64,000 bases of DNA, taken from NCBI GenBank assembly GCA_021157625.1, contig JAGGWD010000005.1, positions 2,118-66,117 of the forward strand, given 5' to 3'. This stretch comes from a bacterium. GTDB taxonomy: Bacteria; Patescibacteriota; Minisyncoccia; Minisyncoccales; JAGGXC01. Shown here piece after piece: positions 10,317 to 11,858 of this stretch. Both the position numbers and the translations under genes were made by a program. Each line of letters starts with the position of its first letter. The first letter of the stretch is position 1. The notes under the pieces were generated by a model that worked only from the letters and a program-made list of their open reading frames with translations, did no database searches and had not been told where the DNA came from.

Positions 10317-11858
10317 ATGAGAAACATCAATTTAACAGCTTACTTCAGAAAATCAATGCTCTTGGCTTTGCTGGGAACAATCCTGGTAATGGGAGGTGTT
10401 TTTGTTTTTTGCCAGCAAGCTCTAGCACAACAAGAGAGTTCTCCAGAAATAATTTCCCAGGAAATAGATGAAAGCAAAGTAATCCAAGCAGTTACTGCTG
10501 ACGAACAAGTAACTCCTCAAGATTTGGGCGTGAAAGATCCAAAACTTCTTCCTGATAGCCGATTCTATTTCCTTAAAAACTGGGCAAGAAAAATCCGTCT
10601 TTATTTGACCTTCAATCCTGTAAAGAAATTGGATTTGGAATCAAGATATGCTAACGAGAGGCTAATTGAATTAAAGAAATTGGCTCTCAAGAAGAAAAAT
10701 CCTGAGATTATCAAGAAAGCGCTCAGGAATTATGAAGATCAGATAGAGAGAATAAAATCGATCTCTGAGAAATTAAAAGAAAAGGCATCACAAAATCCAG
10801 AGATTGGTAAATTTCTTGATAAATTTACCAAGCATCAGATTCTCCATCAAAGAATTCTAAAGAAATTAGAAAACCAAGTACCCCCAGAAGTATTTCAAAG
10901 AATAAAAGAAGCAAGAGAAAGACATCTAAGAAGGTTTGGCGAAGTAATGACAAGATTAGAGAATAAAGAGAAAATACCTGAAAGATTAGAGAAGAATCTG
11001 GAGAAGCTAAAGGGTTCTAAATTTAAAAACCTTAGGAATCTGGAGGTGCTAAAAGAATTAGAAGAAAAAGCGCCCGACCAAGCAAAAGAGGCTATAAGAA
11101 AAGCTCGCGAGAAAATACTTGAGAAAACAAAGAGAAATATAGAAAACTGGTCTCCTCAAGATCTAGAAAGATTCAAAGCCTATATGGAAAAAATCAGTGG
11201 CAACAGAGAAGAACAATTAGAAATCTTAGAAAGTCTAAGATCAGAATTAAAAGAAAACCCTGAACTTAGAGAGAAACTTCAAGAAGTAAGAAAAAGAATT
11301 ATAAAACAGATCCCCAAGAAAGTAATAAAAGCAGGTTGTCCTGAAATAAAACTACCCGCTCCCGATTTTTGTAAGGAAGGAAGGATTGTTTTTGAAAGAG
11401 ATCAAAAAGGATGTATCATTTCTCTGAAATGCATTATACCGGCTGAATTACAAGCCCGCATTCCTCCAAAAGAGAAAAAGAAAGTATGTATCGCTGTATG
11501 GGATCCGGTATGTGGTAAAGATGGCAGAACTTATTCAAATGAATGTTTTGCCAAAATAGCGGGTGTGGAAATATCCTATAAAGGTGTATGCAAGAAAGAA
11601 ATGACCTGTGCTGAAAAATGTAGATCTATGGGATATAGCGCAGGAATATGCAGAAGTTGGTCAACAAGTGCATTGCTCAAGAAAGGATGTAGAGAAAATG
11701 AAGAGAATATTGGAGAAACACTGGATTGTCGTGTCGTTGAAAAAACTTCTGATATAGAAAAGGCCTGCTGTTGTGTAAAAATAAAAAAAGTACCGAGAGC
11801 TCAGCCGTTGCAAGAAGAAACCGAAAGCAAAACAGCGCCTTTCATTCCCGCAAAATAA
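10317..11858 (+). CDS. Secreted DUF5667-like coiled-coil protein with a Cys-rich C-terminus containing a Kazal-like motif
   Basis: N-terminal TM/signal (LLALLGTILVMGGVFVFCQQALA). DUF5667-like LPDSRFYFLKNWARKIRLYLTF. CIAVWDPVCGKDGRTYSNECFAKIAGVEISYKGVC lies at ~11484-11595. Confidence 0.75.
   Translation: MRNINLTAYFRKSMLLALLGTILVMGGVFVFCQQALAQQESSPEIISQEIDESKVIQAVTADEQVTPQDLGVKDPKLLPDSRFYFLKNWARKIRLYLTFNPVKKLDLESRYANERLIELKKLALKKKNPEIIKKALRNYEDQIERIKSISEKLKEKASQNPEIGKFLDKFTKHQILHQRILKKLENQVPPEVFQRIKEARERHLRRFGEVMTRLENKEKIPERLEKNLEKLKGSKFKNLRNLEVLKELEEKAPDQAKEAIRKAREKILEKTKRNIENWSPQDLERFKAYMEKISGNREEQLEILESLRSELKENPELREKLQEVRKRIIKQIPKKVIKAGCPEIKLPAPDFCKEGRIVFERDQKGCIISLKCIIPAELQARIPPKEKKKVCIAVWDPVCGKDGRTYSNECFAKIAGVEISYKGVCKKEMTCAEKCRSMGYSAGICRSWSTSALLKKGCRENEENIGETLDCRVVEKTSDIEKACCCVKIKKVPRAQPLQEETESKTAPFIPAK

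Follow-up and report, generated by a model that had tools for sequence, protein, structure and literature searches.

A predicted secreted DUF5667 protein with a two-disulfide Kazal domain and an exchangeable Cys-rich tail encoded on a Patescibacteriota contig

The 64,000-nucleotide stretch of contig JAGGWD010000005.1 analysed here (the window), from the Patescibacteriota assembly GCA_021157625.1, includes a gene for a predicted secreted protein in which a helical DUF5667 region is followed by a Kazal domain and other cysteine (Cys)-rich segments. The gene is a complete open reading frame (ORF) for 513 amino acids (aa) with an ATG start at 10317..11858 on the forward strand (coordinates include the stop codon), exactly where a first-pass annotation, made from the DNA sequence, had placed an ORF, and the same protein was called, identical, on three independent metagenome contigs. 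All features of this protein given below lie on the same (+) strand. The earlier description of the product as a secreted protein of the DUF5667 type was borne out by a Pfam DUF5667 match (E 9.2e-18) and a predicted signal peptide. The mature protein contains 16 Cys in three blocks, and the three Cys-rich blocks seen in the first-pass annotation were recovered as C341/352/366/372, C391/399/410/425 and C431/435/445/458/471/484/485/486. A full-protein AlphaFold2 model, built on a 106-sequence alignment, has a mean predicted local distance difference test (pLDDT) score of 88 and a predicted template modelling (pTM) score of 0.78; in this model the blocks each have pLDDT ~80-93, with lower-confidence linkers between them. 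More than 556 significant homologues were found, and according to precomputed annotations nearly all of the 120 listed carry DUF5667 and Kazal domains.

The middle Cys block (aa 391-425) was assigned to a two-disulfide, non-classical Kazal domain with the spacing C-x7-C-x10-C-x14-C, located at 11487..11591 and thus slightly inside the range of about 11484-11595 estimated previously. In the profile search, matches to both Pfam families were significant, with 31.2 bits for Kazal_1 (PF00050; cut-off 21) and 28.5 bits for Kazal_2 (PF07648; cut-off 22.8). The core motif is present as C391-IAVWDPV-C399-GKDGRTYSNEC410, Cys II and III enclosing the reactive loop. In a phmmer search of PDB sequences, the best solved relative was GmSPI-2 (silk proteinase inhibitor 2 from Galleria mellonella; PDB 4HGU / 2M5X), matched over the whole domain at E 1.7e-9, and further matches included LDTI (9e-7), agrin (4e-5) and follistatin (~1e-2), as well as ovomucoid, CrSPI and SPINK1. 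The profile scores above the cut-offs and the match to GmSPI-2 indicate that the Kazal motif is not a chance occurrence, and on these sequence comparisons the middle block is a genuine domain of the Kazal family, inhibitor family I1 of MEROPS.

C391, C399, C410 and C425 align to Cys II, III, IV and VI of Kazal domains, whereas Cys I and V are missing; with four Cys only, the domain does not have the classical six-Cys arrangement paired 1-5/2-4/3-6. It departs from the classical pattern, not from the family. The earlier count of only four of the six canonical Cys is correct, but not the view of it as an anomaly, since GmSPI-2 is a working two-disulfide inhibitor that likewise has four Cys and lacks Cys I and V. 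GmSPI-2 has 36 residues, four Cys, two disulfides and Thr7 at P1, and it strongly inhibits subtilisin and proteinase K (PMC4169406). It shares with the window domain the seven residues between the first two Cys, the small P1, the position of the helix and the core W-D-P-V-C-G-K-D-G-x-T-Y-S-N, and differs in being a free insect peptide with Thr at P1, whereas the window domain forms a single bead of a bacterial protein of 513 aa and has Ala at P1. As GmSPI-2 is active with four Cys, the 'missing' Cys correspond to a known working variant and not to a defect. By homology to GmSPI-2, the disulfides are predicted to be C391-C410 and C399-C425. The modelled secondary structure (strand 398-400, helix 409-414, strand 419-422; pLDDT ~92) agrees with the description of the GmSPI-2 crystal structure, and in the alignment the crystal helix Leu23-Ala29 falls on the helix predicted at aa 409-414, which speaks against the unrelated fold that the original assignment had named as its counter-case.

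Two other groups of inhibitors are close to the window domain. The leech tryptase inhibitor LDTI (PDB 1LDT / 1AN1), the second-best solved relative, is also a compact non-classical Kazal domain with the same spacing past Cys II, but it has three disulfides and a basic P1 for trypsin- or tryptase-like enzymes. In Phytophthora infestans, the two-disulfide Kazal domain EPI1a, which is without Cys 3 and 6, suffices to inhibit subtilisin-family proteases (PMC1236909). EPI1 and EPI10 resemble the window protein as secreted Kazal-like inhibitor types of a host-dwelling organism with a two-disulfide domain; they differ in that EPI1a lacks Cys 3 and 6 where the window domain lacks Cys 1 and 5, and in that EPI1/EPI10 are eukaryotic, have no helical scaffold and have a known target, tomato P69B.

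Alignment to GmSPI-2 places the predicted reactive-site loop (P3-P3') at C391-I-A-V-W-D396 (11487..11504) and the predicted P1 residue at Ala393 (11493-11495), two residues past the first Cys as is Thr7 in GmSPI-2. Among 118 domains from the 120 homologues, the Cys spacing of 7, 10 and 14 is identical, and C391, P397, V398, C399, Y406, N408, C410 and C425 are invariant in the family alignment. The loop has the consensus C-I-T/A-L-W-D-P-V-C, and is exactly C-I-T-L-W-D-P-V-C in 55 of the 118 domains. P1 is Thr in 78 domains, Ala in 20, Ser in 10, Met in four, Asn in four, and His and Val in one each, so that it is small in 108 of 118. A near-fixed loop with a small P1 suggests a conserved partner, and analogy with GmSPI-2 would make this partner an enzyme like subtilisin, proteinase K or elastase. 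No second motif of the Kazal, DUF5667 or cysteine-stabilised αβ (CSαβ)-like kind was found in any frame of the window.

At the N-terminus, a Sec signal peptide is predicted from the sequence and from the '...LAQE' of homologues at aa 1-37 (10317..10427), with cleavage at A-L-A↓Q-Q. The segment opens with positive charges, is hydrophobic at aa 13-31 and continues to A35-L36-A37 followed by Q38. A comparable hydrophobic segment is found at the N-terminus of the 25 printed homologues (of 120 retrieved), most ending in '...LAQE', and A37 is nearly invariant in the family alignment. The N-terminus therefore reads as a cleavable Sec signal peptide and not as a membrane anchor; of the earlier alternatives, signal or transmembrane sequence, the A-L-A↓Q site and the '...LAQE' endings retain the first and speak against the second. 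A lipoprotein was also considered and rejected, as V-F before C32 does not form a lipobox and C32 is not conserved, being Tyr in the 98%-identical homologue P0001. Given the resemblance to a cleaved signal peptide, surface exposure of the protein does not follow, while the signal peptide and the even number of 16 Cys fit an extracytoplasmic location. The signal peptide is followed by an acidic, low-confidence linker at aa 38-76 (10428..10544; pLDDT 51-65 in the blocks covering aa 21-50 and 96 from aa 51). Homologues P0005, P0006, P0023 and P0024 have an extra Cys-rich module right behind the signal peptide, e.g. '...CSEENPCSEGKECISFPDIGNRCAEPNPCSYYRCP', which the window protein lacks.

The DUF5667 (PF18915) domain at aa 77-190 (10545..10886) scored 64.9 bits against a gathering cut-off of 27 and was matched over profile positions 2-98 of 99. 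It includes the PDSxFYFLK motif at 10551-10577, in which and next to which P79, D80, Y84, F85, K87, W89 and R91 are invariant or nearly so, as are many residues of the helical core; Y84, F85, K87 and R91 are invariant in the family alignment. The window domain thus matches Pfam DUF5667 proteins, motif included, the fusion of DUF5667 to Kazal being seen otherwise via automatic annotation only. The helical region continues at aa 191-338 (10887..11330) as tandem helical-hairpin repeats with pLDDT >90, and in total 11 helices were modelled between aa 84 and 338. Comparison of the region at aa ~157-340 with itself using hhalign revealed internal repeats with probabilities of 95.5% (157-233 vs 234-294) and 94.1% (234-294 vs 295-340). 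As modelled, this region is a helical-repeat domain and not a plain two-stranded coiled coil, so that the long Lys/Glu-rich coiled coil proposed previously holds for its helical character but not for its architecture. A Foldseek search of the PDB with the full model gave generic helical-repeat matches only (14-3-3 and designed proteins; TM-score ≤0.4, E ≥2e-3), which were not accepted; no informative structural relative for the scaffold follows from such matches, and they do not illuminate the function of DUF5667.

Cys module 1, a 4-Cys β-hairpin at aa 341-372 (11337..11432; C341, C352, C366 and C372), follows the helical domain. Its signature C-P-x-I-x-x-P-x-P-x-F-C-x-E-G-R-I...G-C...C is kept family-wide, with C341, G355, R356, C366 and C372 invariant and C352 nearly invariant, and the hairpin is predicted from strands at aa 356-361 and 367-373 (pLDDT ~90). 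A profile of this module gave zero matches to PDB sequences even at E 10, and the module is specific to the family. It is joined to the Kazal domain by a flexible linker rich in Pro, Lys and Glu at aa 373-390 (11433..11486; pLDDT 65 at aa 381-390), which differs in length and sequence among homologues. In the model the Cys modules look like beads on a string, with disorder from aa ~491; the disordered C-terminal tail was delimited at aa 487-513 (11775..11855; pLDDT 45-55 from aa 491).

Behind the Kazal domain lies an exchangeable cassette. Among the 120 listed homologues, 44 end in a 6-Cys module of the form 'QTDADCPQPRCGP...', ~50 have a short Cys-free tail, and eight to ten have the 8-Cys tail of the window protein; the remaining tails carry DUF333 (E 1.8e-21), a second Kazal domain or Cys-rich segments of other kinds that lack annotation. 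In a 106-tip tree of the conserved core, built by neighbour joining, the tail type switches at least 38 times, as compared with a mean of 51 for shuffled labels, and the tail type of the window protein appears in at least seven separate places. For the commonest cassette, the 6-Cys one (found among homologues P0005-P0120; tail 'ECQTDADCPQPRCGPVGTISARCIGVRAKCIEGKCQ' in P0007), the only Pfam match was Late nodulin, at 15.8 bits against a cut-off of 30.4.

In the window protein the cassette is Cys module 3 at aa 431-486 (11607..11774), with eight Cys in the pattern CxxxC...GxC...C...C...CCC and the fuller signature C-x3-C-x3-GY-x2-G-x-C ... C-x3-E-x2-IG-x-T-x-DC ... G-x-G-K-x-CCC. An alignment of 78 sequences shows no variation at any of the eight Cys. 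A word-index homologue search, insensitive to short queries, returned no match with the 69-aa module alone and only three with the 78-sequence profile, and the distribution of the module was therefore taken from a HMMER search run exhaustively over 1.84 billion cluster representatives. This search found 121 proteins (P0121-P0241) of 81-2683 aa, 50 of them at E ≤1e-10, which are either stand-alone proteins of 81-130 aa comprising a leader plus the module, or large proteins that also carry PKD, Ig-like (Big), Kre9_KNH, PG_binding_1, dockerin, β-helix or thioredoxin domains. One stand-alone copy is encoded in the complete genome of a Candidatus Pacearchaeota (DPANN) archaeon (CP061211.1; positions 5001-5288 of locus L087), where it is flanked by genes for an archaeal-type prolyl-tRNA synthetase (ProRS) and for RIO kinase, S17e and Alba; another copy lies in a bacterial context. 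As judged from these sequence matches, module 3 is an unannotated domain family of its own, found in surface proteins of the candidate phyla radiation (CPR) type and in a DPANN archaeon.

Module 3 reached the cut-off of no family in Pfam or NCBIfam, and all of the weak matches were to CSαβ families: Gamma-thionin (PF00304; 17.5 bits, cut-off 25.1), actinodefensin (NF038042; 15.7 bits, cut-off 65) and, for the module 3 homologue P0150, Defensin-like (PF24552; 16.8 bits, cut-off 27). A module 3 profile matched heliomicin, ARD1 and cobatoxin in the PDB at E 0.05-0.3. Comparison by hhalign with eight CSαβ peptides, the sequences of three of them partly checked against the PDB matches, gave a probability of 81% over a 23-column helix-strand core only. 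The AlphaFold2 model of the module (pLDDT 83, pTM 0.67) has a helix and three strands; the helix bears C431 and C435, strand 1 bears C445 and the last strand C484-486. As modelled, module 3 would share with the CSαβ peptides (heliomicin/ARD1, plant gamma-thionins, actinodefensin, cobatoxin) the CxxxC helix, the GxC on the next strand and the CxC on the last strand, which is CCC here, and it differs from them in having eight Cys, no N-terminal Cys and a ~30-residue insertion with two extra Cys between the strands. A Foldseek search of the model against the PDB and a viral library gave no match at E <0.8 (none at E <1 in the PDB). As small disulfide domains are difficult for Foldseek, this leaves the defensin fold neither confirmed nor excluded. 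In sequence, module 3 resembles CSαβ defensins only at scores below their family cut-offs, and membership is not established.

Where a source is named, the homologues of the full protein come from Patescibacteria, Nealsonbacteria or Minisyncoccales, and in a scan with each GTDB species represented by one genome, at least 402 genomes encoded a relative, the named carriers being Nealson-, Wildermuth-, Niyogi-, Azam- and Portnoybacteria, Paceibacter normanii and Paceibacterota. A single short contig with a relative that is labelled Gammaproteobacteria is probably mis-binned. At 60 of 80 fetched loci the threonyl-tRNA synthetase ThrRS is encoded upstream, and at 62 MiaB is encoded downstream; the rest are mostly short or cut by a contig end. 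The window and two genomes that are complete or nearly so show the order dnaE-thrS-gene-miaB. This conserved thrS/miaB slot and the relatives in at least 402 species genomes indicate vertical inheritance and maintenance of the gene. Contamination from a eukaryote, or a recent acquisition from an animal, was rejected on the bacterial synteny (dnaE, thrS, miaB) in at least 60 genomes. The remark in the first-pass annotation that Kazal domains are rare in bacteria is true in general but not for the Patescibacteria lineage, where they occur in these species genomes and mostly in synteny. The domain identities, family size, distribution, synteny, loop conservation and cassette variability given here were all computed. 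DUF5667-Kazal proteins are already labelled automatically in public databases, as 'DUF5667 domain-containing protein' or 'Kazal-like...', and a literature search returned nothing on DUF5667, PF18915, IPR043725 or Kazal domains in Patescibacteria, the one apparent match being the author name 'Kazalov'.

The genes around the DUF5667-Kazal gene are housekeeping genes, namely dnaE, thrS, a miaB-miaA fusion, a radical-SAM gene and a polyprenyl synthase gene. A strong hairpin resembling an intrinsic terminator, with a 15-bp stem and a T-run, lies at 11877..11910 (+), 19 nt past the stop codon. In the 88-nt upstream spacer no consensus sigma-70 promoter was found by a scan that is blind to non-canonical promoters. 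An inverted repeat, GCGGAATA...TATTCCGC, is located inside this spacer between thrS and the gene (window 10270-10305, +); it may terminate thrS or form a regulatory hairpin, and was not flagged by the terminator scan. The downstream ORF at 11952-14141 (+; 729 aa) encodes MiaB (UPF0004, Radical_SAM, TRAM) fused to MiaA (IPPT), two enzymes that act consecutively in the modification of tRNA A37 and are encoded by separate genes, with others between, in loci L004 and L005 of related genomes. An extra gene of ~540 aa lies between thrS and the DUF5667-Kazal gene in L004 (4349-5965) and in about half of the related loci L007-L086, where ~1.7 kb separate ThrRS from the match, and there is none in the window; it was rejected as a paralogue (BLASTP E 0.8, no Pfam match).

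Further from the gene, an ORF of 669 aa at 16870-18879 (-) combines a family-2 glycosyltransferase with a complete enolase (Enolase_N, Enolase_C), an unusual fusion. At 50882-53777 (-), a gene for a VirD4/TrwB-type coupling protein (TrwB_AAD_bind, TraG-D_C) adjoins a DUF8128 gene; monoderm-type type IV secretion genes have been reported for Patescibacteria, and the pair is reminiscent of them. The window edge truncates the 5' part of a 23S rRNA gene at 1-1220 (-), and the window also encodes a bacterial class A RNase P RNA at 45165-45555 (-), an L10 leader at 28443-28553 (-) and four tRNA genes (Val, Gln, Thr, Gly). Two ORFs, at 24603-26693 (+; 696 aa) and 29224-30282 (-; 352 aa), have no Pfam match at E ≤1e-4.

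With moderate confidence, the protein is interpreted here as a secreted scaffold on which the Kazal domain would inhibit, in the canonical manner, extracellular serine proteases that resemble subtilisin or elastase, and to which the Cys-rich cassette would add a lineage-specific binding or effector function. The product would be a secreted, disulfide-rich, modular protein of a Patescibacterium of the Paceibacteria/Parcubacteria type, presenting after cleavage an all-helical domain, then flexible linkers with the 4-Cys hairpin and the two-disulfide Kazal domain, and then the lineage-variable cassette. Most likely the Kazal domain would be a canonical (Laskowski-type) tight-binding inhibitor, the exposed loop C391-I-A393-V-W-D sitting in the active site of an extracellular serine protease, and the small P1 (Ala here; Thr, Ala or Ser family-wide) together with the likeness to GmSPI-2 suggests targets resembling subtilisin, proteinase K or elastase. 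What the cell would probably gain is a shield for its exposed proteins against proteases of a host or of neighbours during an attached lifestyle. The 8-Cys module would be a separate, mobile, defensin-like binding or effector module. We infer the inhibition, its target class, the biological and ecological role and any role at a host interface by analogy.

Several points weigh against this interpretation. The Pfam Kazal alignments span just the first 25-30 of ~48 profile positions, and no peptidase domain was found among the annotated ORFs of the window (~316-21,860; ten ORFs in 22.8-38.8 kb; ~42.5-63.8 kb). The near-invariant reactive loop could reflect a non-protease partner, as the inhibitory Kazal loops of animals are usually hypervariable, unlike the loop of this family. 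Moreover, Kazal domains of agrin, follistatin, SPARC and RECK bind partners without inhibiting proteases.

A rival explanation is that the Kazal domain serves in recognition or adhesion without inhibiting proteases, the protein being an adhesin or host-recognition factor in which the loop binds a conserved non-protease ligand and the tail tunes specificity. It would account for the unusual invariance of the loop and for the frequent switching of tail cassettes; the non-inhibitory agrin, follistatin and RECK are among the PDB matches, and module 3 co-occurs elsewhere with the adhesin-type domains PKD, Big, Kre9_KNH, dockerin and PG_binding_1. However, by far the nearest solved relatives are true inhibitors (GmSPI-2 at 1.7e-9 and LDTI at 9e-7, as compared with agrin at 4e-5 and follistatin at ~1e-2), and the length of the loop and its layout of Cys at P3, small residue at P1 and aromatic residue at P2' are those of a functional inhibitor. 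Adhesion or recognition is considered unlikely, and is kept as a rival mainly because of the nearly fixed loop.

Somewhat less probable still is an inhibitor aimed at a secreted or membrane serine protease of the organism itself, which would make the protein a housekeeping regulator or a means of self-protection and not a defence against host or competitor enzymes. The core-genome behaviour of the gene, with its dnaE-thrS-gene-miaB slot in most relatives, is in line with this, and an invariant loop would suit a co-evolving endogenous partner, but no linked protease gene was found among the annotated ORFs of the window or in three annotated related loci. The idea that the helical-Kazal scaffold is a carrier or precursor, delivering and protecting a C-terminal defensin-like or Cys-rich peptide that would be the effector proper, for instance with antimicrobial or membrane activity against the host, draws on the stand-alone leader-plus-module proteins of 81-130 aa, the sub-threshold matches of module 3, all to CSαβ defensins and toxins, and the cassette-like exchange of tails, but is improbable because ~40% of the members keep the scaffold and Kazal domain without a Cys-rich tail, so that the conserved function cannot reside in the tail, and because Foldseek gave no defensin match and no processing site was identified.

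The preferred interpretation, a secreted scaffold with an inhibitory Kazal domain, can be extended to a broader and more tentative proposal, which is possible but not the expected outcome. In this proposal the DUF5667 domain, the 4-Cys hairpin and a subtilase-directed Kazal domain would form a core-genome 'display scaffold' of Paceibacteria on which disulfide-rich C-terminal effectors are exchanged, and module 3 would represent an undescribed, enlarged cis-defensin-like family common to the ultra-small CPR bacteria and to DPANN archaea.

Patescibacteria account for much of bacterial diversity and usually live attached to other cells; a function has been assigned to very few of the proteins that they secrete or carry on their surface. 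The surprise is moderate, as the Kazal and DUF5667 domains were already annotated automatically and the gene is typical of the lineage. Nevertheless, a conserved secreted protein with a recognisable inhibitor domain, and with a Kazal loop of a type known to block subtilisin-like proteases, is a rare case in which a biochemical hypothesis is directly testable with recombinant protein. The cassette modules flag unannotated small disulfide-rich domains, one of them also present in a DPANN archaeon, that merit family definitions of their own. If module 3 is indeed a cis-defensin-like family of CPR bacteria and DPANN archaea, two episymbiotic groups would draw on a common extracellular Cys-rich toolkit in their contact with hosts, and if the Kazal domain inhibits host proteases, the protein would be a bacterial counterpart of the oomycete Kazal effectors.

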